A stretch of 31,931 bases of DNA from an uncultured Verrucomicrobiae bacterium (GCA_963815455.1 CAWFGO010000007.1:1-31931), one strand, 5' to 3'; positions 4,367 to 30,239 are shown, counted from the first letter of the stretch. Numbers and translations: made by a program. Notes: a model not told the origin generated them from the sequence alone.

Positions 4367-4574
4367 CTCGCAATCGCAAACGGGGAGTCTGGTCCCAATC
4401 CAACGGGTAGCCGCTGTAGAGACCATGCCGTCGTCTGGACAGTTTCATGTCGCATATGCAACACAGAACTGTCCAAGCCATCCGCTCCGAATCGGGCTCG
4501 TGCTCTAATCGTGATCGAACCGGCATCTGGTCTGGGACAATGCTGAATCGCGTCTTGATTTCTCCGGAAGTTTC

Positions 4575-4708
4575 TTGACCCGGCCTCGGCGTCCTGACCA
4601 GAATCGACCGTGCGTCAGGGCGTTGAGGCCCTCTGTCTGTTTAACGCAGGACCTGACTCTCTGGCCGGAACCGCGGTCGCAAGGCGTCCGCCAACGAAAG
4701 GATAATCC
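4575..4708 (+). promoter_or_regulatory. second copy of promoter + structured leader
   Basis: TTGACC(4575-4580)-18 bp-CAGAAT(4599-4604). Stems GTCAGG(4614-4619)/CCTGAC(4652-4657) and GCGTTGA/TTAACGC. CTCTGGC..GGAA..GCGGTCG..GTCCGC..GAAAGGAT shared with 188-234. Confidence 0.5.
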
Positions 4709-6722
4709 ATGAACACGATATCGATTGAACCCTTAGCTCGTTACTCCGCATTCACCTCCGCGATCAATAAAAGATCGCTTGTTTTTTTCCTTGCTGCGCT
4801 TGGGTCGATGAGCGTCACGTCACCCGGTCCCGCCCAGGACGTTCACGAGGACAACTTTGAGATTATTCGTCGAATACTCCAGCGGCCCGTCCCCCCCGCC
4901 GATCCCGTCGACATACCAGATAACCTCTTCACCTATAATGATCATGCGGCGATCGATACAGGCGGTAATCCAACGGTCCCGCTGGAGGATCTGCAACCGG
5001 TCTGGAACGTTTCGGTAGCAAGCGACATCGCCCGCTTTGTTGGAATCGGCATCGACATTGTCGTTCACAACGGACGCCGCGCCTATCCCATCGGCCGATC
5101 AGATGAGATCTCGGATTATTTTTTCAACGGTGGGCCAGCGCCGGACGCTACCGCCCCGGTTGTCGGCGCCAATTTGTCCGATCCGAATCTGAGACCGCCA
5201 ACTCCGCCATCGAGCCCGTTTTGGGCCGATGGGCTGCCATCACTTTTTCCGCCTGTGCAGGATTTCGGCCCTGCCGGTGCCGCCGAAAGCGGGGCGAATG
5301 CGGTCATCTGGCCGTATGGAGAGGACTCCAATCCTCCCACTGCCATTGGTCTTATCACTGAGACCTCGTACTCCAACGTGGCCCACCTGGGCGATTCGGT
5401 GCCGCCGCGCCCGAGTCCGACGCCTTCCGGAGTCGGCACCACTTATACTAGCTTTGGCGCAGTCGCCATAGCTCGGGATTATGCCGCCTTCATCGCCAAT
5501 GGCCAGGCTTTCACCGGCGTTTACACCAGGAAGTTTTCCGACGGAGTAATCCGGGCCGCCGTGGAAGGGCTCGGCTTTGGGCATCCCTACGGCAACATGA
5601 ACGAGGTCTTCTTTCACGGAAATACCGGCGTGATTTTTCGCTCCGACAACGGCATCTACCGCGGTCACTCCGAGGGCACGACGAAACCGGTCCCTATTAT
5701 TTTTGAATGGCCAGCAGTTCGCACCCGGCAGGATTTATCGCTCCGGCACGTTGACTGATGTGGACGGCGATCTGGCCGCGGTGGCCGGAAGCGCCGACAA
5801 TTTTCTGAGCACGATCTTCATTCTCGATCTGACGACCGACACACTCCAGGCGATCGTCCAGCAAGGCGCGCCTATCCCTGGAAGCATGACTGGCGATACG
5901 TTCGGTTTTCTCCAGCGAGCCGCAATCTCGGAGGCGATGGTGGTCTTCGAAGGATTCAATCAGAGTTTTCAGTACGTCGGTCTTTTTGCCTGGGTGGCTG
6001 GCCAGGTTTACCCGCTTGTCCTCAAGGGACAAATGTTCGACGGAAAAGTGATCCAAAACATTGGCTATCAACCCGGCGCGGTGGATGCCAACGCGATGGG
6101 TTTTACCGCCTACTTCACGGATGGCAGTGCTGCCGCTTACCTGGCCAGGGTCGGGCCTACGCAGCTTACCGCCGCTGTGTCGCGAAAAACACACGGCTCG
6201 GCTGGAACTTTCGACATCAATCTTCCCATTACCGGCACGCCCGGGGTGGAATGCCGCAGCGGCGGCGCCGGCGGCAATCACACGATTGTTTTTGGATTTT
6301 CTCACAGTGTGGTGAGCGGCGACGCCAGTGTGACCGACGGCACCGGTAGCGTGATGGGAAGCCCCACGTTTTCGGGAACTACCATGACCGTGGAACTTTC
6401 CGGCGTCGCTGACGCGCAACCCATTACCCTGACGTTGCAAAACGTAACCGACAATGCTGCCAATGTTCTGCCCGACCTAACATTGACCTTCCACGTCCTT
6501 CTGGGCGACACGAATGGAAACAATTCGGTGAACGCCTCCGATATCGCGCAGACCAAGGCGCAATCCGGCATGGCCGTGACCAGCGCCAATGCTCGCCAGG
6601 ATGTAAACGAAAACGGGACCGTCAGCAGTTCCGATATCTCGCTCATCAAATCGCGTACCGGCGCGTCCGCCACCGCAGGTTCGAAAAGCCGATCGAAAAG
6701 ATCAGCGCCTTTACGCCGGTGA
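4709..6722 (+). CDS. secreted dockerin-tailed protein, shorter paralog of 281..4366 (one +1 frameshift at ~5700-5704)
   Basis: ORFs 4709..5758 and 5703..6722 align end to end with the C-terminal ~600 aa of the first gene ('HxAIDTGGNPT', 'LGDSVPPRPSPTPSGVGTT', 'VSRKTHG'). A T5 run at 5700-5704 breaks 'PIILNGQ'; removing one T restores it. Confidence 0.8.
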
Positions 6723-10350: not shown

Positions 10351-10426
10351 TGGTGGAGGTAAGGGGATTCGAACCCCTGACCTTCTCATTGCGAACGAGA
10401 CGCTCTACCAACTGAGCTATACCCCC
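10351..10426 (-). tRNA. tRNA-Ala (anticodon CGC)
   Basis: Reverse complement GGGGGTATAGCTCAGTTGGTAGAGCGTCTCGTTCGCAATGAGAAGGTCAGGGGTTCGAATCCCCTTACCTCCACCA: 76 nt cloverleaf, G3:U70 alanine identity pair, TTCGAAT T-loop, encoded CCA. Confidence 0.97.
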
Positions 10427-11096: not shown

Positions 11097-11198
11097 TGTA
11101 GCGGCGGTCTCCGACCGTCCGTCGAATTCTCTTAGCAAATAATGCGACGGCCGTCCGCCGTAGCGAGTTGACGGCGCGATAAACAGACCGCTTCTACA
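11097..11198. repeat. REP-like palindromic intergenic element (GTAGCGGCGGTCT...AGACCGC..CTAC type)
   Basis: Imperfect terminal inverted repeat TGTAGCGGCGGTCT / AGACCGCTTCTACA between convergent genes. Related half copy at 22933-22957. Confidence 0.6.
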
Positions 11199-11234
11199 GT
11201 TTACTCGGACCCGAATCGACGCTGCCCGCAGCGC

Positions 11235-11996
11235 TTAGGCTCGACGTAAACCTTTCCGGGCAGAATCGAGCATCCAGCGGGCGGCTTTTTGCCGCAATTG
11301 GGCCGTGCTGTGCAACTGCAACTTTTCCTTCATCCGCACTTGATGGGTATCGATTGTTTTGACGCTCACGGATAATTCCCTGGCCAATTGCGAAACGCCA
11401 AATCCGCGGCCAATCAGAGCAAAGATCTCCAGTTCCCGGTCGCTCAGAATATGCAATTCGGAATCACCGCCGCGAATTTTGCTCGTTGCGAAATTCTGCA
11501 ATAGCCACGGCAAGACGGTGGCGCCCACACAAGAATGGCCGGCCGAAATTTCATCGAGGGCTCTCACAACTTCCGCGATGCCGTCGCCTGTCGTTAAGTA
11601 CCCACGAGCCCCGGCCCGGACAGCGCGCTGGATCGACAATGGATCCTCACCTGCGGACAGGATGAGGGTTGCGGCCGTTGCGTCGAGTTTGCGGAAGTCT
11701 TTGGTCAACTGAATACCGCCGCCACGGCGCAGGATCAGGCCCAGCACGACAAGTTTTGGTTGATGCTGGGCGAAAAGCTCGCGCGCTGTTGGGGCGTCAT
11801 CTGTGTCAGCGCAGGTCGCAAATCGTTCGCTCGTATCGATAAGGCGACGTAACCCGAACCGAATTAGCTCTTCGCCGTGGACGATGAGCACTTTGATCTT
11901 TGTCGGGGACGCTGTCAGGTCCGCTTGTCGGGAATTTCTCACATTGTTGCCGAGGGACGGTGGCCCCGGATGTCTCTCTTTGCGCGCCGATATCAT
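11235..11996 (-). CDS. NarL/FixJ (LuxR-HTH) family response regulator with degenerate receiver domain
   Basis: C-terminal HTH 'LSDRELEIFALIGRGFGVSQLARELSVSVKTIDTHQVRMKEKL'; receiver fold from 'IKVLIVHGEELIRFGL'. Start chosen at ATG 11996 because the longest ORF (12161) overlaps the divergent RHS gene. Confidence 0.85.
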   Translation of the reverse strand: MISARKERHPGPPSLGNNVRNSRQADLTASPTKIKVLIVHGEELIRFGLRRLIDTSERFATCADTDDAPTARELFAQHQPKLVVLGLILRRGGGIQLTKDFRKLDATAATLILSAGEDPLSIQRAVRAGARGYLTTGDGIAEVVRALDEISAGHSCVGATVLPWLLQNFATSKIRGGDSELHILSDRELEIFALIGRGFGVSQLARELSVSVKTIDTHQVRMKEKLQLHSTAQLRQKAARWMLDSARKGLRRA

Positions 11997-12132
11997 GTCT
12001 TCACTACTACTATCCGGGATTTGTAGGGAAGTGATCTCAAAAAAAGCAGCATAAAATTCAGGGGTCCTCCCCGACAGACAACTTTTGCCAGTCTGCCTAT
12101 CCTCGGCCTTCATGAACCGAAAGGAGTAATAG

Positions 12133-15100
12133 ATGAAAAGATTATTAATATTCCTAGCCACCGCAGCGCTCGCAACAGGCCTTTATCTCCTCGACCATTC
12201 GCGCCTCCGGGCCGACGAGGGCGATCCAGATGATCCGGACAACGTCGAATTGGCGGATCCGCCGACTTCACCCGACGCTCAGAAGGAGTTCGACGGAATC
12301 GCGATTATCAACTACGAGCCTGGCAACGAGGACGGTGCGGCGGTCACTTCGGAGGCGACAGATGGCAAGACCGACAAGCTGCCGGGTCTTCAACCGGATC
12401 AACAGGTTGAGGTCACGATGAGTCTAGGTGCCAACCGAGCCGGCCGGACGTTTCACGTCTCGGCCCTTGAGGGCGGCCAAGTCTTCGATGCGGATGACGG
12501 CCTTGTTGCTGACGAGAACGGAAACATCGCCTTCACATTCCAGGCGGGCCATGAGCCCGGCTTGTATCAGGTTGCCCTCCATGACGGCACTCACGAGATC
12601 GGCATCCAATTTTGGGTCATCAACAACGAAAATCCGGAAGAGAATCAGATTGTCGATGTTCCCGGTGATGGCTCTGGGGGCACGGTCACCGGCGGACCGA
12701 TTGAAACACCTTTTAGAAACGACAATCCAACCGGGCCCTGCGGTCGCTTCGGCCCCATCGTTGCCACAGGTTGTTCGTATGACCCTTACACGACGAATGC
12801 GACCCGCTCAATCACTGATCTAGTCGTTCCCGGTGCGGTCGGAATGTATCCCCTCACATTTACGCGCATTCTAAACAGCCGCTATGTCGCCGGACTCACT
12901 GGCGAGTTGGGATCAGGCGGAAACTGGCGGCACTCGTATCAGTGGAGTATCGACAGCAGTGAAACGCTTGATTCCTACGGATTTCCAACCAGCTACTGGG
13001 TCAATTATCCCGATGGGCGCCGTGTTCAGTTTGGACCAGCCCCTTCGCCAAGTCCGAGTCCAGTCGATCCCTACTTCCGCGGGCCGCGTGGCGTAAGTGA
13101 TCGATTCCAGCAGCTAAAAAGTGGCGCAGGTTTCAGTATAACCGATTGTTTCCTGAAACTACCCGACGGCGGGAAAATCCACTTCACTGCCACTTGGAAC
13201 GGCGCTCACTTCGATTATCAACTCAGCGAGATCATCGATCCCTACGGTCAAAAGCAAATAATCTCGTACCCGGCGGATCGCAGCATGACCATAGAGGAAC
13301 CCGCCCATCGGCAACTCAAAATCTTCTACACCCGTGGCCCTATAGCACTTACAAACGAAGTCGTCATTTCTCGGGTAGAATGGTGGTCGGCTTCGCCCGA
13401 AAACGGGGGCGTTCGAGTCCAAACGGTTTACTATGGCTATTCGTTATATTCCATTTTCGGAAACGCTCATGCCGAATTGACCAGTGTGACTTATCCGGAC
13501 ACCACCGTTGGGAGTTACACATATCAAAACAGTAATCTGTCGAGTGAATCGACCCGGCCCCTTATTCGCACGTGTGTCGATCCAATGTTTGCCGGACCGA
13601 TGTGGAAAATCGCCTACGCATTTGCCACCAGCTCCCCGGCTCTTTCGCCGTTTATGGTCAGTTGCGGAGCGAAAACTACTTCGACGGCACCAATGTTGGC
13701 CCAGCGGTATCCAGCCTTGCGGTTACAGGCGCCGATACCCGCGTGGAAACCCGGGGGGATGGGCCGAGCCGTACGTTCACCTATTGGGGAAGTCCATCAT
13801 CGTATCCGCCGTACGCGCTCAAGCTCGCGTCCGATTTCAAAGGAGTGAGCCCAACCTACAACCCATTCTACTATGATCCGCGTGGATTCCTTTCGAGCGC
13901 CACAGATCGCAACGGTAACACCACGGCATACGACAACAACCCGTGGACCGGAAATGTGACAAAAGTCACATATGCAGATGACTCGACTAGTGAGACGATT
14001 TACTCTGACGATCATCGGTGCTCAGACGGGAACAACAACGATTCAGATAATCCGTATTACCCTTGCTCTTACGCCAGCAAGAAGAAGAAATATTCGAGCA
14101 AGTATGTCCGCGATTCGTCAAAGCGTGTCCTAACGATTTACTACCCGGATGCTTCGTCGAGCGAAAAGGAACAATTTACCTATGACGACACGGTCGGCCA
14201 CGGGCAGATCAAGACGCATCGACTGAAAACCGGTGGCGTGGAGAGCTTCGTTTATTTCCAAGATGGCCGCGGCCTTCTCAAGGAATATTACGATGCCGAT
14301 CACCGCCTCAGCACGAGCGAACCGGATGATCCGGAAGTCAGCCCCACGCCCAGCTTTACCGAGCCGAGCCTGGTTTATACCTACTATGGCGCCGCAGATG
14401 GATACCAAATGGACCGGGTGAAGTCGATTACCGACGCTGCGGGGGCGGAACACACCACCACGTTCACCTATGACCAACGCGGGCAGATCCTCACAATACA
14501 AAAGCCCGGTGCGGCTGCCGTCGTGAACACTTACAATCCGGACGGAACACTGGCGAGTACCAAGGACGAGCTAGGCAACACCATTACCTACGCCTACGAC
14601 GACTACAAACGGTTGGTTGCGACGACGCTGCCTCCGCCGCAGTCCGGAGCGAGTCCGACCACGACAGTTGTTTCCTATGCCTGGCCAGGCGGCACTATAT
14701 TTTCTAGTTACACGCATACCGATGCGAACCCGACGCAGGTTGTCTCCGCGGCGGGCAAGACAGTCCGCACGACATACGATGAAAATTTCTTACCGCTGAG
14801 CGTAACGACCGGCTACGGCTCGAGCGCGGCAGCCACGACCTCATTTACTTACGACGACAACGGCAATCGCAAGACTGCGACCGATCCAAATGGCAGTAAG
14901 ATGCTTTATTATTACGACGAGCGGAATCACCTCAGCGATATGGACGATCCGCTCCTGAACGACCCAAACACGCCCCACAAGAACAGCCAGGGGCACACCG
15001 TAAGCTGGACGTACGACGGCAGTGATAATGTTTTGAGCGTTGAGCGCGCAAATGGCCAGTTTATCAGCAACGATTACGACTCGCGCGGACGGTTCCATCT

Positions 15101-17556
15101 CACAACCGTGCACCAAGATCCTGATCCGGATGCGACGACAACTTACGGTTATTACGACGACAGCGGTCTGTTGAAGACTATGGAAGATCCGCGTCACAAA
15201 GTTTACACATATTCCTACGACCTGATGGGCCGAAAAAAACAGCTCACTTATCCTGGAACAGGCCAGGGCGGGGGCAAGTTCGAAAAATGGGAATACGACA
15301 CTGTGGGCAGACTGTCGAAGTTTACAAACCGCCACGGCGACACTCAGAATTTCAATTTGCCCGACAGTTACGACAGCCGGAATCGACTGCTCCACTTCTC
15401 CTGGACAGTGAATTATCCCACGGAGCAAACGCCTGACGTGCATTTTGTTTACGACGGCGCTTCGCGCCTACTCAGCATCAACAACGGCAATGCGCTCGTT
15501 GAGCGAGAATATTTCGACAACAATACGCTGATGAGAGAGAAGACCACCGTTCCGGGACAGCCTGCGCGCACCGTCGACTACACATACAATGTCGATCTGA
15601 CCCCGGCGGCGATCACGTATCCCGATCAAACCTCGGTCGGCTTCCATTACACGGGGCGAAACCAGATTGAAAGCATCCTCAATTCGCAGGGCAATCCGAT
15701 TGCCAGTTACGCCTACGATCTCGATGAGAATCTCACGGGTCGATCGCTTGAAAATGGAACAGCCAGCTCGTTCGTCTATGACGAATTGAGCCGCGTCACG
15801 CATATTGAACACGCGTTCACCGATGCCACGAATCCGGTTCGCAAAATCGATTACGGCTACGACAAAGTGAACAACCGCGCGTGGACCAAACGCGACAATG
15901 GCAGCGGAAACGTGGCTGGCGACCAGTTCCGTTACGATTTGGCCGACCAAGTCATCGATACAAAACTCAACATCGCCAGTCCCGATGCCACGCCGTCGTG
16001 GAGCCCTACTCCCAGGATCGCCTACGATGCCAATGGAAACCGCCTAACTTTCAAACCCTTCGGGGTGATTGAGCAATACACTGGCAACAACGACCTGAAT
16101 CAGTACCACGAAACGCCACAAGAGCGATCAGAATTTTACCCCCGATTCGCAAGCCCTCCACGATGACAACGGCAATATGACGCGCGGATTGGACACGACC
16201 AACACTCCAACCGATGGATCGCAATACACTTACGACGCGCAGACCCGCTTGGTCAGCGCGACACGAAACGGAGTCGCTGAAGCTTTCAAATATGATGGCC
16301 TCGGCCGGCAGGTCAGCCGGCAGATCGGCACGGCGCCACCGACCTACAATGTCTATGACGGCTGGAACCTGATCGCCGAGTACGCCCCGGGCGCATCGAC
16401 ACCGACTGCAACCTACATTTACGGGCCAACTGGGCTAACCAAAGCGATCATGCCAGCCGAGCCCGTTCCCAACCGGTACTACTATCAGGATGCCAGCGGA
16501 AGCACGTCGCACGTGGCCGATAGCGGAGGCCAGCTCAAAGAATGGTACCGCTACGACCTGCAAGGCACGCCGGCCTATTACGATTCGAATAATCAGCAAA
16601 AGAATTCCAGCGACTATGCGATTCGCCACCTCTTCACAGGGCAACAATGGTACAGCGAATTGGGGTTGTACAATCTCCGGAACCGATTCTATTCGCCCGA
16701 TATTGGTCGCTTTTTACAGCCAGATCCAATCGGTTTTCTGGGGGACTTTGGGAACCTATATCGCTATTGCGGAAATAATCCCGTCAATTTTGCCGATCCG
16801 ATCGGTCTTTTTCGCTGGGGACAGTTCGCCATAGGAGCCAGTTCACTTATTGGTGGCACTGCAATGATTGTTGGTGGAGCGGGTGCTTCGGCAACTGGAG
16901 CTGGAGCTATCGCAGGAGTTCCGCTGATGTTGTCGGGTGTGGTGGCGTTTGGTTACGGCATTGGCAACATTGTCGCGTCGTTTTCGGACGTGACGGGAGC
17001 AGCAGAATTTCAAGACACGCCGAGTAACCTATCAGGAGCAGTTGCTCGAGCAGCGTGGGGAGAGGGTGCCCAGCATAGTGCTGAGATCCTGGAAAACATC
17101 CTCCACCTCTCAGGCAGAGAAGGGATAGAGGCACTGCACTCAGGAATTGAGGTGGGTTTAAGCTGGTATGGGGCGATTTCTTGGTACGGCCGAACATACT
17201 CGTATGAGAAAGGCGGTGCATATTTCGAGGCGGACCCAAGTTCCCCAACAGGCTGGACCTTAGTGTATTCCGAGCAACACGTTGAGGCCGTCGAAATTGT
17301 TGGATCCGTGGGAGGAGAACCCATCGCTGCCAGTCCCAGTCTTGGTCGCGCTACCAACGCTTACATCGGGGCAAGTGCGAGTGGTTTTGCCAATTCTTTG
17401 GGTGGTATGTGGGGAATCGGGGGCAGTATGTGGAGCATGGGTGGAGCCGAAGGCTTTATGACATACTTTCCTGGGATGATCGGCGGAATAAACTTCACTC
17501 TAAACGGAGGTGGATGCGGAGGTAATTTGGCAGCAGCGATAAACCGATTCCCATGA
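12133..17556 (+). CDS. rhs: RHS/YD-repeat polymorphic toxin with N-terminal signal peptide (frameshifts at ~13635 and ~16105)
   Basis: ORFs 12133..13848, 13572..16166 and 16177..17556 join into one gene. Many YD repeats; RHS core 'GLYNLRNRFYSPDIGRFLQPDPIGF..NLYRYCGNNPVNFADPIGL'; ~248-aa variable C-terminus from 16810. Confidence 0.88.
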
Positions 17557-17692
17557 GAGCCGAGTTGAGAATTTCAACTGCGGCATGTGGCATATTTCAA
17601 GGCAAGAAGTTTCTATCGGACATGATTGGTGATATCCTCTTTCACATTAAGCTTCCCCCAATTAGGAGGAACATGTAACACGCGAAAGGATT

Positions 17693-17896
17693 ATGCTCGA
17701 CATTTCCAGCGGACGAACCGGAGCCGGCGACTTAATTGTGGCCGGAATGATGATTGCAGCGGCTGTATTTGCCTTGCTTTTTACAAGGAACCGGAGGGAT
17801 CTCATCCGCGGGCTCAGCTACAAACAATTCGTTTGGTGCTGTATCATAGGCATAGTCAGCGCTGCATTTATCATAATTGGCCACTTTCTATTTTGA
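17693..17896 (+). CDS. small two-TM protein, candidate RHS immunity protein
   Basis: AAAGGA SD before ATG; two hydrophobic helices separated by a basic loop; AT-richer DNA downstream of the RHS tip. Confidence 0.5.
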   Translation: MLDISSGRTGAGDLIVAGMMIAAAVFALLFTRNRRDLIRGLSYKQFVWCCIIGIVSAAFIIIGHFLF

Positions 17897-17991
17897 TAGC
17901 TTTATTGCCTCAGTCGAGATAACTACGAGCAGTCCGACAGCAACAGCACCATTTGTTGTTCTTGTTAGATTTGGCGGAAAGAGGCAGGTTG

Positions 17992-18332
17992 GTGAACGCG
18001 ATTACTAGCTCATTGGAGTCTGAACAGAAGGGGGACTAATTCTGCGTACATTCTGGATCATAGTAGGCATTAATGCGGGGACTTTGGCCACAGTGTTGGT
18101 GTTCGCAAGCTGGTTGGCGCTCCTTCGGCCTGACGCCGAACAAATTGAGCAAATGCGAACAAACAACTGGAAAGACGCCCTTTTTAGATTTCCAAGTCCA
18201 CAATTAATGCTGAAGACTTATCAAAAACTGTCAGAGCATTGGCGTTCTCGGAAAAACGCGAGAAAGCTCCTTTACTGGAGCTTATTGTTTACCGGGTTTG
18301 CCGTGGTTGCTTTTGCTTTGGCACGATCATGA
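17992..18332 (+). CDS. small membrane protein, second candidate immunity protein (possible frameshift in G-run ~18030-18034)
   Basis: ORF 18084..18332 stays open upstream to ~18024 ('LILRTFWIIVGINAGTLATVLVFASWLALL'). A GTG at 17992 joins it if one G is removed. C-terminal TM 'LLYWSLLFTGFAVVAFALA'. Confidence 0.45.
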
Positions 18333-18465
18333 GAACAACGCATGAGAGAACGCGAATCAGGATAATGTTCCGTCTAAGTCGCCCTAAATCGACGGACATT
18401 GACCTCGGTCCAGGAAATCTTCCGAAGCCTTCCATATCGTGGCCACCAATTTTCCAAACTAGACG

Positions 18466-19410
18466 ATGAAATTCGGCTCTTGGAAGGCGCTCCTAGTCGC
18501 GGTCGCGCTCGGGTTGTTTCTAATCTCGTCGAGCACGTCGGCACAAATCTTTGTCGCCAACACCAACTTCGGCGGGTTCGGTGCCGGAACAGTCGGTGCG
18601 TATGATATCACAACGGGAGCAACGATAAACTCATCATTCATTACCGGGCTCAATAGCCCGATAGGGATCGCCGTTGCTGGGGGATACTTGTATGTCGTTA
18701 ACAGCGACTCTGCTACGATCGGGAAGTACGATGCCGTTACCGGCGCGGTCATCGACGATGCATTTATTACGACTCCGGGTAATCCAATCTTTGTCTCTGT
18801 TTCCGGGTCTGACTTGTTCGTGACCAGCTATTTAACCGACAGAATCAGTAAATACGACGCAGTTACGGGAGCGACAATTGACGACTCTTTTGTCACGAAA
18901 TTAAATAACCCATTTGGTTTGGAGGCAGCGGGCGGATACTTGTTCGTGACCGAAAAGGGCGGGGTCATTGGAAAATTCGATGCGGTGACAGGCGCTGCAA
19001 TCAACGAAGGCTTTATTACCGGATTACATGGCCCGACCGATATTGCAGTGCTCGGGAACCGCTTATTCGTTACTAACCACGGCAACAACACGATAGGCGA
19101 ATACGACGCCAATACTGGCGCCGCCATCAATCCCGCGTTTGTAACTCTTCCTGGGCTGACTGGCGCCTATGGGATCGCCGTATTTGGGACAAACCTTTAC
19201 GTCACGAACGGCAATGCCGGTAAGATCGGGGTTTACGATGCCAACACTGGGGCAACCATCAACGCAGCCCTCATTACGGGTCTTAATGGGCCAGCAGGAA
19301 TCGCGGTAGTGCCAGAACCTTCGAGTTGGACTCTGCTTTTGCTCGGCGCCTCCGCGGCTATCCTTTTTCGGGCGGCGGAGCGGGGTCGGCTTAGGGTTAA
19401 GACCCAATAG
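18466..19410 (+). CDS. PEP-CTERM sorting-domain protein, six-bladed beta-propeller-like repeats
   Basis: Signal peptide; six ~41-43 aa repeats 'YDAxTGAxINxxFITGLNxPxGIAVxGxxLYVTN'; C-terminal 'VPEPSSWTLLLLGASAAILFRAAERGRLRVK'. Confidence 0.9.
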   Translation: MKFGSWKALLVAVALGLFLISSSTSAQIFVANTNFGGFGAGTVGAYDITTGATINSSFITGLNSPIGIAVAGGYLYVVNSDSATIGKYDAVTGAVIDDAFITTPGNPIFVSVSGSDLFVTSYLTDRISKYDAVTGATIDDSFVTKLNNPFGLEAAGGYLFVTEKGGVIGKFDAVTGAAINEGFITGLHGPTDIAVLGNRLFVTNHGNNTIGEYDANTGAAINPAFVTLPGLTGAYGIAVFGTNLYVTNGNAGKIGVYDANTGATINAALITGLNGPAGIAVVPEPSSWTLLLLGASAAILFRAAERGRLRVKTQ

Positions 19411-19473
19411 GAGCCCACAGAAAAACACAGTTAGGTAAGCCGGTTCGCGCTAACCTCGAAACTTTCGGGGCTT

Positions 19474-20251
19474 TTACAAAGAGTTTGCTTGCCGTTTGAG
19501 GAACTCCTTGGCCAGCGCGCGATAGGCCGCCGCGCCGGTCCCACCGGAGTCGTATTCCAGAACGGATTTGCCGAAGCTGGGCGCTTCGCTCAGGCGAACC
19601 GTGCGCGGGAATTACTGTTGCGTAAACGCGCGGGCCGAAATGTGCGCGCACGTCGGCCACGACTTGCCCGCTTAAGTTGGTGCGGCTGTCGAACATGGTC
19701 ATGACAATGCCGCCGATTTCGAGCCGGTCGTTCGCACCGGAGTCGCGGATCTGTTCGACCACACGGACGATTTTGACCAGGCCTTCGAGCGCGAAATACT
19801 CGCATTGAATCGGCGTCAGAAGCTCGTCGGCGGCGGCGAGCGCGTTGGTCATCAAAATGCCTAACGATGGCGGGCAATCGAGCAGAACGAAATCGAAGGT
19901 ATCGTCGGCGCGTAGCGGCTTGAGCGTTTCGGTCAGGCGGGTGAGATGATTTTCCATGCGCGCGATCTCGATCTCGGCGCCGGCAAGATCGAGATCGGCC
20001 GGGATGATGAACAGACGCTCACATCGGGTCGGCAAAATTTGGTCGGTAATCGATGCCGCTCCCAGCAACGGATCGTAAAGACTGGTCCCGTCCAATCCCT
20101 GTAAACCGAACGAGCTGGTCGCGTTGGCCTGCGGATCGAGATCGACCAGCAGAATGCGCTGGCCCAGCTCCGCCAAGGCGCAGCCGAGATTAACGGCCGT
20201 GGTCGTTTTGCCGACGCCGCCTTTTTGATTTGCGATGGCGATGATCTTCAT
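19474..20251 (-). CDS. parA: ParA/Soj family chromosome-partitioning ATPase (frameshift at ~19607)
   Basis: '[22 protein letters not shown]', 'DLDPQANAT', 'DCPPSLG', '[12 protein letters not shown]'. The canonical tail '[19 protein letters not shown]...[12 protein letters not shown]' is in another frame, ending at TAA 19476-19474. Confidence 0.93.
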
Positions 20252-20253
20252 TT

Positions 20254-20388
20254 CGGGGAGAGCACGCGCCCTGCGGAGTGCCGGCGACTCGGCGCTATCG
20301 CCAGCGCGAACTTTTTCTCGTGATCACGTGCACAAATCTTTTTGGCGGGGGCGCCAAAAAGGACACGCGAGGGCGCGTGTGCTCCCCG
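20254..20388. repeat. REP/MITE-like palindromic element
   Basis: Terminal inverted repeats CGGGGAGAGCACGCGCCCT (20254-20272) / AGGGCGCGTGTGCTCCCCG (20370-20388); internal hairpin TTTTTGGCG/CGCCAAAAA; flanked by an 18-bp direct repeat. Confidence 0.65.
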
Positions 20389-20410
20389 GAGTCAGTGATG
20401 GCGATGATTT

Positions 20411-22846
20411 TCATGAGCGCGGAACGATGAGTGTTCGCAGCTCGAAGGTGCGTCTTCCATCCGGTTCCTTCCACAACAAATGATCCGGATCGGGCAACAT
20501 TTCGGTGACTTCGATCTCGCTGGATTTGGTCAGCCAGCGATGGAAAATTTCTAGGAAGAGATAGCTCTCCAGATCGACAAACACCGGCTTGGTGTCCTTG
20601 TCGCGGCCTTCCGCGCCGCTGCGGCGAAGGGCCTGCTCGGTCGGGCGAATATAAATGTAACGCGGCAAATCGCGCTGGGCGCGTAGGCGTTCGATCGCGA
20701 GAACGAGATCGCGCGAAACGCCTGTGAAATTGCCGTGGCCGAGTTCGTCCAGCGTCATAGTCCAGGCCCGGCGTTGCACAATTACGTTTCCGCAACGCAA
20801 CCGCGGCATGTGCGGCGCCATCCCAAATTGAAACGGATGAAACCCGAGCGGAATAATCCAGTCGCGGGCAAACGAGCCAAGATATTCCTGGTTGTCGATC
20901 CTCCGCAGGCAAACGTCGCCGTTGGTTGGATCGACATAAACTTCCGCTTGCGAGGGCGGAACAGTTTTCCAGGCCGGATTCCCCCGCTGGGGCGCGACAA
21001 AAATTGTGATGACCGGAATAGCGTCGAAAAAGCGCACAGTAGTGTGCGCCGTGAAATCGGCAGCAAAAATCCCGAAGTGAAAATTCGGCCGGTTCAAGGT
21101 CGCGCGCGCGCACGCGTAATTTAGGGCCGCTTTGTCGGGGCAACTCCAATAGAACCCGTGGTGCAGAAGAGCAATAGGAGGATGCAGTTCGCGCAAGAAT
21201 CCATTGATATTCGTCGCGGGCCACGGACGTCGATTGATTCGGCTGCGAGTTGCAGATCGGCCGACGGATAAGTGTATTCGTCGAAATTAGGATATTGAAA
21301 GTTTTTCCGCATGAAGTGGCAGTCATCGGTGGTCAGTTCGTATTCCGCCAGGTTAGCATGAGCCTTCATCCGTTTGCGGAAAGTTGCTTTGACTTCCTGA
21401 AATGCGATGTGCGCGGGAGCGACCAGACCCGGGCCGGTAACGACAAATTCGCATTCTGGCAGGCTCGCAAAAAGCTGGCAACGGAGGCGGCACCATTTTG
21501 GCCTGGCGTCTTTTCCAAAACGCGGCGCAAACCAGCCGCGACCCGACTGGCAATAAACGCATAGGAGTCGCGCCAAAAATCAATCCAGAGTTCGGCCTCC
21601 ACAGCGACTTCGTCGATCATCGCCTCGTTGATAACAAATCCGCATTCGCGAAAACACTCTTCGCCAATGGGATTGCTCGCTGAATACAAGAAACGATCGC
21701 CGGACTCACGGACCGCGCCGAGTGATCCGTAGACGCGCGCGTGCCTCATCGAGAAGTTCCTGCCGCTTGTCGTGTCAATCGCGCGGGCAAATTTCTCCGG
21801 CCAAGTCAGCGATGGGTCGCAAAATCGAGAGCCAGTTTGTCGGGTATAGCCAGTCGCCATTTTCCCACATCGTCGCGCAATACGATAAAAGCATGCGGTT
21901 CCAGCGCCGGAACCTCCACTTCGCATCGAATGACACTTTTTCGACGAGAACGCGAATTTCATCGATCGGCGTGCCCAATGAATGAACCGGCGTTTTTCCA
22001 TCGCAACGTCGTAGCAATTCGAGTTGAGAAGGGTCCAGTGCAACACTTCTCGCCCGACTCGGCGAAAATGAATTGATCGCCTTCGACTCGACCATCTGGA
22101 TTCAGGCGCGGCGAGAGTTCCGGAAAAATTTCGACGGTCAGCATTCATCGCCGCTGCAACGGCATGTGCTGTCCAGCGTTCCAGAAAAACTTCTCGTGCG
22201 GCAACGCCGGACAGAACGTCAAACTCTATTCCTTGAGTCAGTTTATCGACCTTGCCCCAGCCAGACGGACCAAATTCGCAAAGGTATCATTCTTGGCCGC
22301 GAGCCGCTGGAGATATAGCAATAAACTTTGCTCAATTTTGCGGGCTGCATTATTACGCCCAGGCAGCGTCGTGAGATCATCCGGATAGCGCGAGAGCTGT
22401 TCGACTAGAAGACCGCGAACGCTTTCCGCACCAAAGACAAGATATCGCACAAGCTGTGTTCGGCTTGATGCAAGAAGCGCAGAACGGGCGATCCGAATCT
22501 CGCGCTCAAGCACAGCATTCAAGGTAGATTCTAGTGATGCGACTTTGGCTGCAGCCGCGGCGTAATTTGTGAAGAGTGATGGTTGTTTTCCAGAGACTTG
22601 CGTTGGCGGTCGTCCGAGCCGTACCGCAATACGTAAGGCATGGTACGCTTCTGCGGATAGGAGTTGCTCGCGCGAGCGAAAAAAAGTTTCGACTTGCTCG
22701 ATTGCATCGGCGCGTTCATTCGTTCGCGCGAGCAGCTCGCGGGCGACAGCAATTGTGTCAGGTGTGTCGAGTCGTTGAATGGTATCGAATGGAACACCAG
22801 CCATTCGAATCAGAAAAATTGGAGCGACCTGATAAGCGGATGGCAC
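20411..22846 (-). CDS. stand-alone lantibiotic dehydratase glutamylation-domain protein (small LanB / PEARL-like), multiple frameshifts
   Basis: Motifs across frames: 'FLIRMAGVPF', 'YLQRLAAKNDTF(SEFGP)', RRE-like 'ELLRRCDGKTP', 'YPSADLQLAA...WILxELH', 'HMPRLRCGNVIVQRRAW', 'KPVFVDLES', 'VTEMLPDPDHLLWKEPDGRRTFELR'. About 810 codons, no elimination domain. Start uncertain (GTG 22846 or up to 22927). Confidence 0.82.
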
Positions 22847-22932
22847 GCATTGAGCAAAACCAAAGGGACGAGGACTGACAAGTGAAACCGCGATCCCGGC
22901 CCCGAGGGGTGAGCCGTTGCTCCCCAAAAATG

Positions 22933-22957: not shown

Positions 22958-24110
22958 CTAGACGTTCAGCAGCGGAAGGCGAATCGTGAAAATTGTTCCC
23001 GCAGCGGGCGTGCTGTCGACTTTGATGGAGCCGTTGTGGTCTTCGACGACCTTTTTTGTGATATAAAGCCCAAGACCGGTTCCGCTCTTGCCCTGTTTCG
23101 TCGTAAAATACGGATCGAAAATCTTGTTCATTTGGGCCGGGTCTATTCCTGCGCCGGTGTCTTCAATGACGATGTCGACGTAGAAATCTTTCCGCACACA
23201 AGTGACCGAAACCGGTCCTTTTTTCTCGGCGGACGCTTGCAGCGCATTAATAATAACATTTTGGATCGCCCGCTTGATTTGAACCGTGTCGCCCTGAAGC
23301 GTGCAGGGATCCTTGCAGACTTCGGATCTTAATTCGATGCCGCTTTGGGCCGCGACCGGGGTAAGTCCTTTCAGAACGTCGCGGACAATTTCGGAGACGG
23401 AGATCGGCTTGCGCGGGGAGGCTTCAACACTGCCGTAGCTTTGCCACATGGTCAGCAGCTCCCGGCAAAGGCGCACATTCTCTTCGATGATGTTTAGCTC
23501 TCGAATCGAATCGGTGTTCTCGGCGGCGTCACCGTTGTCAGTTTTTTCGAGTTTCTTGGCCAGAAGCTGGACATAGCCCCAAACAATCGTTAGTGGATTG
23601 CCCAGATCGTGGACGAATTCGGCCGAAGCCTGGCCGAGAGAGGCAAGCCGCTCTTTTTGGGCAAGCTCTTTCAGCAAGGCGGTTATTGAGTTCCTTGATT
23701 TCGGCGGCGGTGTGTTCGGCGGTCCGCTGGACCCGAGTGCGCTCGACATTGCGATCAATGACGTCGCGCATTTCGCCTGCATCAAAAGGTTTGCTGATGT
23801 AATCATTAGCGCCGAGCCGAAGTGCTTCGCGGGCCGTCTCGAGGGCGCCGAAACCGGTGAGCATGATCACAGAAAAATGGGGATCGATCTCGCGAATTTT
23901 GCGCAGTCCATCGATGCCGGTCATTCCGGGCATGCGAATATCCATGACGATCGTATCCGGGTTTTTTTCCTTCAGAAGCTTGAGGCCGGCTTCGACGCAA
24001 TCGGCAGTGTGCACCTGATAGTCCGGTTTCAGCAGCATCCGCAGGCTTTCGCGCGGACCGACTTCGTCGTCGATAACAAGGATTTCGGGCGGTTCAGGCG
24101 GAGCGGTCAT
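22958..24110 (-). CDS. cytoplasmic hybrid response regulator/histidine kinase (REC-HisKA-HATPase), frameshift at ~23680
   Basis: Receiver 'ILVIDDE...IVMDIRMPGMTG...MLTG...YISKPF' with all catalytic residues. H-box 'FVHDLGNPLT', N-box 'NVIINALQA', 'EDTGAGI', 'FDPYFTTK', 'GTGLGL'. Start may be up to 24170. Confidence 0.88.
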
Positions 24111-24469: not shown

Positions 24470-25705
24470 ATGATTAAGCGCAATCGAGTCGTCATTACCG
24501 GTATGGGGATCCTGGCTCCGAACGGGATCGGGATCGAGGCATTTTGGGAATCGCTTCTCGCCGGCCGCAGCGGGATCGGCCCAATCACGCTTGTTCGATG
24601 CGACCAATTTCAAAAGCCGGATCGCCGGCGAAGTAAAAAATTTCGACCCGCTCGATTACATCGATCCCGAACTGAAACCGAAGCGGATGGCACGGCATAC
24701 CCAGTTGGCATACGCTGCGACAATGCTGGCGCTCGACGATGCGGGCTGGACTCGACATCTGGAATTGCCGAGCCCGACGCCGGTGATTATCGGGGTCAGC
24801 ATGAATGCGATGGACGTAATGGAGCAGCTCTTCACATCGTAAGCGGACACGGACCGGATCGGCGCCGGCAACCACTTGTCCGCAGCGTCGATTCCTCAGG
24901 GAGCCGCAAACATGATTGCCGATCGGATCGGGGCTTGCGCGCACGCGACGACGATCTCATCGGCATGTCCTTCGGGACTGGATGCGATGGCGGACGCAGC
25001 AGCAATGATTCGCTGGGCGAAGCTGAAATCGCGATTGCCGGCGGCGCTGATGCTCCTATAACTCCGTTGGTCGATGGCTAGTCTTTACGCCAGCGGACTG
25101 AGCTCACGTCGAAATGGTGAACCGGAAAAGGCAAGCAGGCCGTTCGATTTGGACCGGGATTCGGGCGTGATATCGGAAGGCGCGGGTGTTTTCGTCCTGG
25201 AGAATCTTGAACGTGCCCGGGCGAGGGGCGCACGTAGTATGTAGAAATCAGAGGATACGGAAAGCAACGAGATCTGGATCCTAACAGGCCGGCATCGGGC
25301 TTGGAGGAATCAATGAGGCAGGCGTTGGCAAATGGCTCTGCGACATCGAGGAAGTTGATTACATTTCGGCCTACGGACCGGGTCATCCGGTGCTCGATGC
25401 CGCGGAAGTGGACATGATGAAGAAGGTTTTCGCGAGCACGCTTATGCGATTCCGGTCAGTTCGATCAAAGGTGATAACGGGGAAGCCTTATCTGCTGGCG
25501 GCCCATTCCAAGTTGCAGCGTCCGCGTTGACTATCCGGGACCAGATAATCCCCCCAACCGCAAATTATGATGCGCCGATCCAAATTGCGACTTGGACTTT
25601 GTTCCGCAGCGGGCCGCGAAGAGCAAAAGTGAATTGCATCGTGATCAACGTTCGAGGTCTGGGCGGAAGCGCCAGTTCGATGTTGTCAAATCGTGTCAAG
25701 ATTGA
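24470..25705 (+). CDS. FabF-like beta-ketoacyl synthase with atypical active site (several frameshifts)
   Basis: '[17 protein letters not shown]', '[14 protein letters not shown]', Cys motif 'TISSACPSG', 'AIAGGADA', '[25 protein letters not shown]', 'IIPPTANY', '[12 protein letters not shown]'. Probable stop TGA 25703-25705 overlaps the next ATG. Confidence 0.85.
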
Positions 25706-28221
25706 TGAAAAGCCCTGTCATACCGATTCTCGTCGCGATCGTTATCCAGCTTGGCCTCGGCCTCGTTGTCTTTCAGGCCAACTCCAGGCGCAAAGGCAAA
25801 TCAGTGTTTCTTGCTTTTATCAATTGCGATCGGGGGTATGGCTGGGCAGCCTGTGCCTTATATTTCAGGCGAACACGGTCGAAATCGCTGCAATTCGCCA
25901 TACGGGAGGCATCCGTCATGGGCGCCGTGATTCTTACGCGTCTTCAATTTGCTGCGACTGTCGATAAGATCGAGAGGGAGCGATCCTGGCGTGAATATTC
26001 GCAAGTCGTGGGCTTGGTTGTTCGTGTTATCCTGGTAGTTGCATTCTGCCAAACCAGACTTCTTCCTCAAAGGAGCGCGATCTTTCCCTCGCGCGACGGA
26101 GCCAGTTGCCGATTTACGGCGAAGCTTCCGTGCTTTATGGGCGTATCTCGTTTTAGCCGGGGTAGCCTCTTGTCGTAGTTATGCGCGGGATATACGAAAG
26201 GCGACTGCGGTCAAGAGAGCAGAACTCGCCTTTATCCTAATTGGTGTCGGCGTCGTGATTAGCATAACCCTTTTGTCCGTCGCCCTTGGCTTCTTAATCG
26301 ATCGCTCGCGACTCGTCTGGTTGGCGCCGCTTCGGATGGTGCTTTTAGCATCATCATTGCTTATGGAATCGCCACGCGAAAGATCATGGATGTCGGGTAC
26401 TCTTTCGCCGGATTATTTCCTACACGCTGCTTGGCGGCATATCTTCTTGGCGCTTTATGCGTGGTCTGGTGGTTGGTGGCGACGGTGTTCAATCGTTGAT
26501 CCAAATGCCCGCTCGATTGCGCACGTAGCGGCCGCAATCGTGATTGCCATTGCCATGGCCCCGGCCCGAGGCATTTCCCAGCGATTGGCCGAGCGGCTTT
26601 TCATTAGCTCCCATCAACTGGATTTCCGCGCGACCGTGAGCAAGGCTGCCAAGATTCTGAGCTCGGTCACGACCTTACGCGATTTGCTCGATCGATTTGC
26701 CAATACTGTCGCGGAAGCCGTCGGCACTGACCGCGTCTTTATTCTACTGCCGGAAAAGCACGCATTTTCGCAGCGTATCCGACTGTGTGATCCTGGCTGC
26801 GCGTCATCGACTGGAGCTAACGCGCGACCAGGCGACGATCGACCAGCTTCACCTCGGATCGCGAGCCGATCGTGATGGACGAACTGCATCGGGTGCGTCC
26901 CACGCCGCAACTTCGCAGTGTAATGCGGCAATTGGATTCGCTCCAATCGGCGCTGGCGATGGGAATTTACGCTCGCGACCAGCTGGCCGGGGTGATGTTG
27001 CTCGGGGCGCGAAAGTCGGGACGCATTTACGGCACGGTGGAACAGAATGCGTTGCAGGTGTTGTGCGGTCAGCTCGCAGTGGCGATCGAAAACGCCGAGC
27101 TGTTCACCGAAGTGCAGAACGCCAAGATCTACAACGAAACCTTGCTGGAAAATCTGACCAGCGGTGTGATCGCTGTGGGAACCGACGAGCGAATCACCGT
27201 TTTCAATAACGAAGCCGGGCAGATCACGGGGTTGAATTCGCAGGAGATGCTCGATTGTCTCGCTGGACGAACTGCCCGGAACCGCTCCGCGAGCCTTTGC
27301 GCAAGACGTTGGCAACCGGCGAAAGCGAGGTGAACCGCGAATTGGTCCTGCGCTCCGGAGATGAAGGCGTGGTCATTCGTGCCAGCACTTCGATCTTCCA
27401 TGGAGAAGATCGACAAATCCTGGGCGCGTTGATGGTGTTGACCGATATCACCTCGATCAAGCGGCTCGAATTGCAGATCCGTCGAAGCGATCGTCTGGCA
27501 AGTCTGGGCACGCTTTCCGCTGGCATGGCGCACGAGATCAAGAACCCGCTGGTTTCGATCAAGACCTTCGCCCAATTATTGCCGGACCGTTATCAGGATT
27601 CCGATTTTCGGGAAACATTTTCGAACTTGATCGGCCATGAGATCGAGCGGATCGATACGCTGGTGAACCAATTGCTCCGCTTCGCCCGCCCAGCCAAACC
27701 GCATCTGAAGCCGATGCACGTTCATGAAGTGCTGGAAAAATCGCTTCGGCTCGTCGGTCATCGTTTGCATCAAAGACAAATTAAATTAACTCGCTCTTTT
27801 GACGCAAATGTTGACACAATACGGGCCGATCCGGACCAGCTCGAGCAAGTCTTTCTGAATTTCTTTATTAATGCCATGGACGCGATGAAAAACGGCGGCG
27901 AACTGAGCGTGCGGACAGAGATCCGCATGGAAGAGCAACGGGTCTCCGCCACGCGCCGATCCAACGGCGAGCCGCTACGAAGCGCTTCGAATCACTATTC
28001 GCGACACCGGGGAAGGAATTCGCAGCGAAGATATTCCGCACGTCTTCGATCCATTTTTTACCACAAAAGATTACGGCACCGGCCTGGGGTTATCGGTCGT
28101 GCACGGGATTATTCAGGAGCATGGCGGCCAGATCGAAGTGGAAAGTGAGCCGCAAAAGGGAACGGCGTTTCACATCCTGCTTCCGCTGGTCAGGTTTGAC
28201 CGAGAGGTGGCGGCGGCATGA
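25705..28221 (+). CDS. multi-pass membrane sensor histidine kinase (TM bundle-GAF-PAS-HisKA-HATPase), several frameshifts
   Basis: About 300 aa of hydrophobic helices; GAF end 'QLAVAIENAELF'; PAS 'LLENLTSGVIAVG..ITVFNNEAGQITG'; H-box 'GMAHEIKNPLVSIKTFAQLL'; 'DTGEGI..FDPFFTTKDYGTGLGL' in a shifted frame ending TGA 28219-28221. Confidence 0.87.
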
Positions 28222-30239
28222 CACCAGCGCCGATTTGCGTTTTATATACTCAGGACCCCGAATTAGCGCGGCGGATCAAAGCGTACCTGCGATCGACGTC
28301 GCAGGTGCGTCATGTGGTCGAGCCGGACCGGCTGGACGCGGTTCTCCAGCAATCGGTTCGGCCCTGCTCATCATAGATCTGCGGGTCAAGGAATCTCGCG
28401 ATCTGATCGAACAGATGCAAAACGAATGGCCCGAGGTCTTGATCATTGCGCTGGGCGTGCCCGGTTCCGATCCGCTCCGTGAAGCCGAGCAATTCGGAAT
28501 TTATGCAGCTGAAGAACTGGACCTCGAGCGACGCCTGTTCCAAGCGATGGCCGACCGGGCTTTCGATCATCTCCAGGCTGCTGCAGGAAAACCGCGAGCT
28601 CAGGGAAAAATCGACAATGGCTGCCGCAGCCCTGCCACGGCGAATCGAGATCTGCCAAGCAACAGTTGCCGGCGCGTTCGCTGTCGCATTGCTGCGTTTC
28701 CCCCGCGTTTTTCGCCGGTTCGAAAATGTCGATGCGCTTTTGGCAGCGTCGTTGAAAGCGTAGCCGATGCCGCCGGCGTGACGCGCGTTGGGATTTTTTC
28801 GAAGGCTCGCCAGGGCGATCGGTACCGGCTTCGGGCGGGCTTGCGCTGTTTCCCGGAAACACACGAAATGGAGTTTGGCGAGCGCGATCGCTTGCCACGC
28901 TGGTTTGAACGGCACGCCCATTTGATTTCTCGGTCGAACCTCGCCAACAGCCGGATCCAAAGGGAGCGAATGGTCATGCGGCGGGCGCTCGATTCCTTTG
29001 GCGCGGAAGTGATCGTGCCTCTTTACGCGCGCGAGCCGCATCATCGGCTGGATTTTTTTCGGGCATCACGTCACCGGCCAGAGATTCGATCATCACGATC
29101 TCGAGGGACTGATGATGCTCGCCGAGACATGTGTCCACTGTGCTTGGAAAACGCGTTCCTCTACGAGGAGGCGACATTGCAAAAAACGCTGGCCGAAACG
29201 CTGCTGAAAGCATCCCGCCCGGCATCGTCGCCACGGACGAGGAAGGAATCATTCGATGGTTCAATCCGACGGCGGAACAAATCCTCGGTATCTCCAAGGA
29301 GAACTGTCTTGAGTAAACCTGTCGAGACTGCCGGCAGCAGACTGGCTGGCTTCGTTCGCGAGACTCTTGATTCCAAAGCCGCGATTTGCCAGCAGACAAT
29401 GGATCGACAACCTGACGCGGCGACGATCTCGGTGGAAACACGTCGGCTCGTTGATCAACGATGCGTCGCTGGGCGCCGTGGCTGTGATCAGCGATCTCAC
29501 GCGCTGAAGAGGGCTTGCGCGAAAAAGAAGCGCTGGTCGAGCGGGCGGCATTTTGGACCGATCTGGCCGCTAGCATGTCGCACGAGATTCGCAATCCGCT
29601 GGTCGCCATCAAAACTTTTGCCCAATTGCTTCCCGAGCGCTTTGATGATGCCGATTTCCGAAAGGAATTTAATTAGATCGTCGTAAGAGAAATTGATCGC
29701 CTCGACAAAATCATTACCCAGATCAACAATTTTGCGCATCCGCCCGACATCATCCTGAAGCCGGTGGACGTGCGCGGCGCCTGTGAAAAAGGGGATCGAG
29801 ATCGCGCGGGAGCGGTTCGGTGTGAATGGCGGCGTTCCGGTGGAGACATCGTTGCCGAACAATCTGCCGCAAAGTGATCGGCGACGAGACGGCACTGGCC
29901 GAAGCGTTCGCCCATCTGGTGGCCAATGCGGCCGAGGCATCTCCGGTCAGACCAAGCGCGCGCATCACTCTTTCGGCTAAAGCGATTCGCGAAGGGAAGC
30001 GGGTCAACCGGCGTCGTCGTGACTGTGCGGGACAATGGAAGGGGATCGCGCCCGAGATGAAAAAAAAGGTATTCTCCCCATTTTGCACGACCAAAACGCG
30101 CGGTATGGGGCTGGGCTTGCCAATTGTTAAGCGGACGGTATTCGATCACAACGGCCGGGTCGAGATCGATTCGTCCCCGCACGGCACATTGGTGAATGTG
30201 ATTCTGCCCGCGAAATCGAACGGGCAAAATGACGGCTGA
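28218..30239 (+). CDS. soluble histidine kinase (degenerate receiver-GAF-PAS-HisKA-HATPase), several frameshifts and one in-frame TAG
   Basis: ATGA overlap with the previous gene; receiver-like start 'MTPAPICVLYTQDPELARRI..LLIIDLR'; 'LENAFLYEE'; PAS 'SIPPGIVATDEEGIIRWFNPTAEQILG'; 'MSHEIRNPLVAIKTFAQLL'; 'FSPFCTTKTRGMGLGL'. Confidence 0.85.

Follow-up and report, generated by a model that had tools for sequence, protein, structure and literature searches.

A PEARL-type ligase gene inherited with a ketosynthase–histidine kinase block in a family of soil Verrucomicrobia, and its possible role in small-molecule signalling

The ligase locus and the source contig

The window (the whole stretch of DNA analysed, 31,931 nt) is the entire 31.9-kb contig G000:C7 of bin G000. 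On its minus strand it carries a 2436-nt gene, read from a GTG at 22846 to a TGA at 20411, that is set among parA, three histidine kinase genes, and a ketosynthase gene, as follows:

19475..20251 (approximate end), minus strand: parA, a housekeeping neighbour in the same operon as the ligase, outside the co-inherited module
20254..20388, no strand: short dispersed palindromic element of 135 nt with 19-nt terminal inverted repeats
20411..22846, minus strand: gene for a PEARL-type aminoacyl-tRNA/ATP-dependent ligase, PF04738 only, ~811 codons
20435..20446, minus strand: C-terminal FELR (ExR) motif, PEARL phosphorylation residues (equivalents of BhaB Glu813/Arg815 and TglB Glu801/Arg803)
21180..21265, minus strand: SADLQ...ELH, with Asp and Glu as predicted Mg-ATP ligands (equivalents of BhaB Asp558/Glu575, by motif)
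21925..22135 (approximate), minus strand: RRE-like segment from fold analysis, deleted in frame in some relatives
22280..22318, minus strand: YLQR..KNDT helix, likely binding the tRNA CCA end (equivalents of BhaB Tyr205/Arg208, by motif)
22876..22881, minus strand: TTGTCA motif, a putative promoter element just upstream of the ligase start
22958..24110, minus strand: Rec-HisKA-HATPase hybrid histidine kinase, a module member (1 indel)
24470..25703 (approximate end), plus strand: FabF-like ketosynthase (10 indels)
25684..28221 (approximate start), plus strand: 7TM-GAF-PAS histidine kinase ending ..RFDREVAAA (15 indels)
28218..30239, plus strand: soluble GAF-PAS histidine kinase with an N-terminal receiver-like region, a module member (16 indels, 1 stop); its start is overlapped by the stop of the 7TM kinase

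ORF calling returns the ligase as several separate ORFs, with 11 single-base indels between ~22278 and 21188, and a frameshift-aware alignment lays an intact 805-residue ortholog end to end along the gene (67% identity, 11 indels, no stop). Because the window duplicates the main-chromosome region G000:C1 398.6–424 kb at 74–90% nucleotide identity in long syntenic blocks, its contig is probably a co-binned relative (the stated contamination of the bin is 0.37%), and the bin holds an intact ligase at C1 407732–410008, a single open frame of 758 codons (P0001). Together, the ligase, ketosynthase, 7TM kinase, and soluble kinase carry 52 single-base indels (~6 per kb) and one stop in 8.2 kb, as against only two indels in the hybrid kinase, parA, and fba combined. 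Such a concentration is what joint decay of the four genes into pseudogenes, in the window contig only, would leave, and the preliminary description had itself raised decay; every indel, though, is a single base, only one stop accompanies the 52, and conserved ligase columns are altered no more often than in the intact copy (3 of 143 in the window, 3 of 160 in C1), for which reasons we read the 11 ligase frameshifts as probable errors in the sequence of a stray contig and consider decay quite improbable. The ligase indels also lie where the window least resembles C1 (62–69% versus 88–93% identity), a clustering expected of unpolished low-coverage long-read sequence. All comparisons of the module below rest on orthologs and none on the window's frameshifted copy.

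Classification of the ligase

Judged by its domain content and residues, the ligase is of the PEARL type and not a LanB, and its amide chemistry is predicted from the PEARL literature, in which a carboxylate is phosphorylated and condensed with an aminoacyl-tRNA, with the tRNA then released. The residues contacting tRNA and those serving ATP binding and phosphorylation in BhaB and TglB (PMC11962472) have counterparts throughout the family. For the tRNA 3′ end, the YLQR..KNDT helix is invariant in 56 of 56 orthologs, as are the equivalents of BhaB Arg34, Tyr205, and Arg208, and an equivalent of Arg429 is present in at least 90% (all by motif). For ATP, D478, E749, and R751 occur in 71 of 71 proteins and E500 in 70 of 71, these four being paired with BhaB Asp558 (D478), Glu575 (E500), Glu813 (E749), and Arg815 (R751) by motif order and position rather than by direct alignment. 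A neighbourhood free of the elimination domain PF14028 serves as a PEARL criterion in PMC11212132, and here a stand-alone LanB glutamylation-type domain, the ATP residues, and the tRNA residues are found together with no PF14028 nearby. The preliminary description of an ~810-codon gene with glutamylation-domain motifs only, and of PEARL type, is thereby borne out: PF04738 is the sole domain, an RRE-like segment is present, and every catalytic residue mapped by motif is conserved, none being missing.

The fold of the protein is that of a LanB glutamylation domain, with TbtB, MibB, NisB, MadB, and GodF as the best structural matches; no PEARL was among them, so the top matches do not discriminate PEARL from LanB. 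The ESM Atlas yielded Lant_dehydr_N clusters only, NCBIfam holds no model for the ligase, and a plasmid search recovered only uncharacterised Streptomyces-type proteins, 21–27% identical over the full length.

As the preliminary description had stated, no elimination partner, cyclase, or precursor was found: neither the elimination domain nor the LanC of a class I lanthipeptide or split-LanB system accompanies the ligase. PF14028 (searched with a positive control) and PF05147 each gave no match in four of five genomes that are 90–100% complete; in the fifth (G421) both matched away from the ligase locus, PF14028 in only two frames of 1114 and 1126 aa. LanB glutamylation domains (TbtB, GodF, NisB, MibB, and MadB) need no ATP and have an elimination-domain partner, and so a split-LanB Ser/Thr glutamyl-transferase of the TbtB/GodF type with its partner encoded elsewhere, which the structural matches would favour, is very improbable and was rejected on the invariant PEARL-only ATP residues and the lack of any PF14028 partner found.

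A co-inherited ketosynthase–kinase block

Far from being an orphan in a housekeeping context, as first described, the ligase travels with a ketosynthase and three kinases in 27 of the 28 genera of the window's family (f1, soil Verrucomicrobia, relatives being labelled Chthoniobacterales or Verrucomicrobiota in the sources). Across 78 Verrucomicrobia loci the gene order upstream of the ligase is fixed, and counting only loci with room, the hybrid kinase is there in 69/69, the ketosynthase in 63/63, the 7TM kinase in 57/57, and the soluble kinase in 54/55; the kinases, the ketosynthase, and parA are the conserved neighbours. The ligase is present in 128, the 7TM kinase in 125, and the His-less ketosynthase in 119 of the same 150 f1 genomes. 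None of 221 genomes from other families of the order has the ligase, on which ground an order-wide distribution was rejected, and 298 other genomes of the phylum gave a single weak partial match. These tallies take in a few unpublished genomes (G003, G008, G015, G632, and G652).

One genus of the family, g10, separates the block from parA. There, the ligase, the ketosynthase, and the 7TM kinase are each found in none of 18 genomes and the hybrid kinase in none of three; the block is absent between lpxD and parA, and fba is gone too, while parA persists at 73–75% identity in the three genomes checked. The ParA tree nests g10 within ligase-bearing lineages, weakly (87), and the absence is probably one event, a loss. 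Because g10 lacks the block yet keeps parA, we take the co-inherited unit to be the ligase, the ketosynthase, and the three kinases, with parA a mere neighbour. At three g10 loci (L132–L134) an enoyl-CoA hydratase-like gene, called by eye from the sequence, occupies the lpxD–parA site.

The ketosynthase itself is atypical. Intact orthologs retain the catalytic Cys but have Tyr and Asn in place of the two His, a Cys-Tyr-Asn arrangement seen in 16 of 16 full-length orthologs, whereas two ordinary G000 paralogs have His at both columns. Without a Cys-His-His triad, and with a TIGR03150 score of 362 bits against a cut-off of 494, it falls outside FabF/KAS II.

Other enzymes at the ligase position

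In the sister family f6 the 7TM kinase is found in 22 of 29 genomes and a PEARL in none of the same 29; a PaaK-like AMP-binding ligase is instead present in 22, 21 of them in common with the kinase. Twenty f6 loci were fetched, and the 18 long enough to show the four-gene block all have it, with a ketosynthase of Cys-Trp-x type. At the position where f1 has its PEARL, the PaaK-like ligase adjoins the hybrid kinase in 14 of these 18 loci, in either orientation, and no ortholog of it was found in 29 f1 genomes, three of which gave weak partial matches. Carboxylate activation at the expense of ATP is common to the two enzyme types.

A metagenome scan with f6 ketosynthases recovered 52 loci of related ketosynthases, in which we found a 7TM kinase (41 loci), a FadL-family channel (14), a nucleotidyltransferase (12), a B12 radical-SAM enzyme (9), an FAD oxidase (9), a sigma-54 regulator (7), a fatty-acid desaturase (2), and a PaaK-like ligase (1). 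None of the 52 showed a PEARL, an outcome built in part into the search, whose patterns leave out f1 ketosynthases; in addition, many of the contigs are short or near-duplicate. In a quick ketosynthase tree (no bootstrap), the PEARL, PaaK-like, nucleotidyltransferase, and desaturase types form one clade each, and the radical-SAM loci fall mostly within one FadL clade. The f1 ketosynthases are no nearer to the f6 than to the FadL type, so we claim no direct swap. Across L157–L208 the ketosynthase active site differs by lineage, with Cys-His-Asn in FadL/radical-SAM loci, Cys-Trp-x in f6 and nucleotidyltransferase loci, and Cys-Tyr-Asn in f1, and seven metagenome loci terminate in a sigma-54 response regulator, likely the output.

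The nearest relatives of the ligase outside the family are 33–45% identical. At the closest one examined (L089, unpublished genome G669) three PEARLs are tightly packed with small-molecule enzymes, the genes including a GH3 amide synthetase, DUF3419, a flavin acyl-CoA-dehydrogenase-like enzyme, ApbA, a class II aldolase, and a MATE exporter; no small acidic ORF or precursor was found in this cluster. A search of 351 genomes around it found that genome only, so contexts outside the family rest on two loci. The three-PEARL cluster is in itself a pearlin-like arrangement that appears undescribed.

Possible function of the ligase

Because the corresponding position of the block is filled by small-molecule enzymes in other lineages, the ligase is likely to produce or modify a small chemical signal and not an antibiotic. 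Our leading, still tentative, reading is that it joins an amino acid to a small signalling acid, probably of the fatty-acyl kind, and that the 7TM/GAF kinases read the product or its removal. By analogy with characterised PEARLs, the ligase would activate a carboxylate by ATP-dependent phosphorylation and couple it with the amino acid carried by an aminoacyl-tRNA; the substrate, of a class suggested by the genomic company, would be a small acid connected with the ketosynthase; and an N-acyl amino acid or similar product would be what the 7TM/GAF kinases sense. The Cys-only ketosynthase could act as an acyl carrier, a transferase, or a sensor, and making, tailoring, or inactivating the signal would all be compatible roles for the ligase. 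Photopyrone signalling (PpyS/PluR) likewise links a ketosynthase to cell–cell communication, but is an analogy only: PpyS is FabH-derived, with Cys-His-Asn and a LuxR readout, and the f1 ketosynthase is FabF-like, with Cys-Tyr-Asn, and lies beside membrane and soluble histidine kinases.

This reading draws on the invariance of the PEARL-specific ATP and tRNA residues, on the co-presence of ligase, ketosynthase, and 7TM kinase in f1 and their joint absence from g10, on the PaaK-like ligase of f6 and the small-molecule enzymes of the metagenome loci, on the L089 PEARLs with their small-molecule neighbours and no precursor found, and on the RRE-like segment, which in six relatives (chosen for a gap in the profile match) is deleted in frame, with differing borders and the catalytic motifs intact. 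PEARLs acting on small molecules also have precedent in SinB1/SinB2 (sinefungin) and SnaE (threopeptin NRPS-PKS), which work without a ribosomal scaffold on a small carboxylate acceptor; unlike the f1 ligase, these sit in secondary-metabolite clusters, and the comparison is by description, not sequence. Against the small-acid reading stand the single event behind the g10 loss, a ligase with a putative promoter motif of its own that is coupled translationally to parA and not to the ketosynthase, an f1 block in which no FadL, ACP, or exporter was found, and an invariant 7TM kinase tail that it leaves unexplained. Moreover, the enzymes at the ligase position catalyse different reactions and so may be regulated targets or captured neighbours rather than pathway members.

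That tail is the basis of the best-surviving alternative, in which the PEARL would add a non-templated amino acid to the Ala-ended C-terminus of the 7TM kinase and so switch an ssrA-like degron. In f1, all 67 distinct kinase ends have Ala as the final residue (GCA 62, GCG 5), with Ala at −2 in 62 and Val at −4 in 59, all four synonymous codons being used at each of these two positions; as a control, the ligase–parA overlap varies freely in its residues, and as a baseline, of 241 long G000 frames whose stop overlaps the next start in this way, only 19 have a terminal Ala. The conserved tail of ~11 residues (in the window, ..RFDREVAAA ending at 28221) is close to the 12–14-mer that BhaB needs, none of 20 7TM kinases from PEARL-free f6 ends in Ala-Ala, and the host tmRNA tag does, Ala-Ala being the key ClpXP element of that tag (PMC7652416). 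Such a degron would nevertheless work without a PEARL, and similar ends occur where there is none: at 10 metagenome loci that share this overlap but have no PEARL, five kinases end in Ala and two in Ala-Ala, and 4 of 18 f6 hybrid kinases end in Ala-Ala. The tail length and the Glu-Val codons could be explained by translational coupling (a Shine-Dalgarno-like GAGGT), the block includes no peptidase to remove the added residue, and the small-molecule enzymes at the same position elsewhere would go unexplained. A ligase-independent degron would be the simpler reading of the tail than an acceptor, the comparative evidence points more to a small acid than to protein tailing, and we regard tailing of the kinase as unlikely.

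That the ligase is a classical pearlin enzyme whose scaffold peptide is encoded away from the locus, as the preliminary description had considered, is somewhat less likely again. Most characterised PEARLs act on scaffolds, and in one set all 70 of 70 sequences have the RRE-like segment; its loss in some genera runs the other way, but because BhaB and TglB function without their RRE, that loss only weakens a leader-peptide model and is compatible with a peptide or protein substrate. Measured against the pearlin cluster layout given in PMC9303977, the ligase has no scaffold gene, tailoring enzymes, releasing protease, or transporter beside it. No conserved small ORF was seen in the intergenic gaps (~60–400 nt) of 17 loci, nor did clustering of ORFs of at least 50 aa reveal one; in G000, a crude scan limited to ATG starts gave no convincing scaffold-like ORF among 29,009 short ORFs (the top 60 of 160 acidic ones inspected), and a motif scan was empty. 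A TglH-type enzyme (PF05114) was not found in four of the five genomes searched, and covariation of the ligase with the kinases is a further point against a remote scaffold.

About as improbable, if not slightly more so, is that a PEARL originating in a myxobacterial-type cluster was captured between parA and the kinase block, where it would serve a separate function, perhaps under kinase control but chemically unrelated to the ketosynthase. Its coupling to parA and putative promoter would fit, a TTG(T)CA-type motif being present in 61 of 72 orthologous upstream regions (a count made without a shuffle control). In a scan for the sigma-70 consensus, none of the matches fell at the start of the ligase (five sites against 2.7 expected). 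Also in keeping with capture are the sporadic occurrence of the nearest outside relatives, in 1 of 351 genomes of that phylum, and a g10 co-loss that may have been one deletion because fba is gone from the same site. Capture, however, sits poorly with several lineages each retaining one enzyme at this position, in f6 through an inversion, and with the f6 ligase and kinase co-varying as well (21 genomes in common).

Comparison with known systems and significance

The ligase resembles the scaffold PEARLs (TglB, TmoB, BhaB-C Trp/Ala, and AmmB1-4) in its ~800 aa, glutamylation domain only, RRE, YLQR helix, Asp/Glu pair, and ExR motif, and in having no elimination domain nearby. It differs from them in being near-universal and mostly single-copy in one family, within a kinase block, in having lost the RRE in some genera, and in standing without an adjacent scaffold peptide, tailoring enzyme, protease, or exporter. 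For modification of a protein C-terminus the nearest comparison is RimK, an ATP-grasp enzyme that glutamylates the C-terminus of ribosomal protein S6 with free glutamate and not aminoacyl-tRNA, a donor that sets it apart from a PEARL-type ligase; for the 7TM kinase tail the comparison is with ssrA and Ala-tail degrons.

A literature search, in which few subscription papers were covered, found neither a paper on this locus nor one describing a PEARL together with kinases. As far as we know, the uncoupling of the ligase from parA, the alternative enzymes at its position, the RRE loss, and the 7TM kinase tail are new. The PEARLs that we found in print all lie in natural-product clusters, whereas this one is a near-core gene of a soil Verrucomicrobia family, set in a signalling block, and comparison across lineages yields two testable candidate substrates: a ketosynthase-linked fatty-acyl-type acid, or the tail of the 7TM kinase. 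Were the former true, the block would be a widespread ketosynthase–kinase signalling module with lineage-specific chemistry and its PEARL one that accepts lipids; were the latter true, it would be a new tRNA-dependent protein modification, and PEARL chemistry would gain its first native protein substrate and its first regulatory role, within a ketosynthase–kinase signalling module not described before. The natural RRE-less variants also offer compact scaffolds useful for PEARL engineering.

The parA junction and other features of the window

parA lies directly downstream of the ligase in 70 of the 78 loci (seven of the other eight reach a contig edge), and an ATGA-type overlap of ligase stop and parA start is found at ~52 of 81 junctions. 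This proximity had led to ParA being put forward as a target, yet as substrate or partner it is hardly credible: its C-termini vary freely in length and sequence, g10 retains its gene in 3/3 genomes checked without the ligase (0/18), and insertions break the ligase–parA overlap in many genomes, the window included.

Insertions resembling the palindromic element part the two genes at ~20 of the 81 junctions. In the window, the ligase stop/start overlap is preserved but runs into the palindromic element, which is flanked by two 18-nt copies of the parA start (its first six codons, at 20234–20251 and 20397–20414), is 94% identical at the C1 copy, and has weaker copies elsewhere in G000. At L063, L066, and L088, insertions directly after the ligase repeat its 3′ end ahead of parA, duplications that suggest a mobile-element target site at the junction.

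Elsewhere, an 8.3-kb stretch of the window (11153–19475) has no counterpart in the C1 copy and encodes a LuxR-type regulator, a DUF6531/RHS-repeat gene, and a PEP-CTERM beta-propeller, and a tRNA-Ala lies at 10351–10426. Large ORFs at 281–6722 end in a C-terminal dockerin-like domain that recurs in many G000 genes and is possibly a lineage-specific C-terminal anchoring module.
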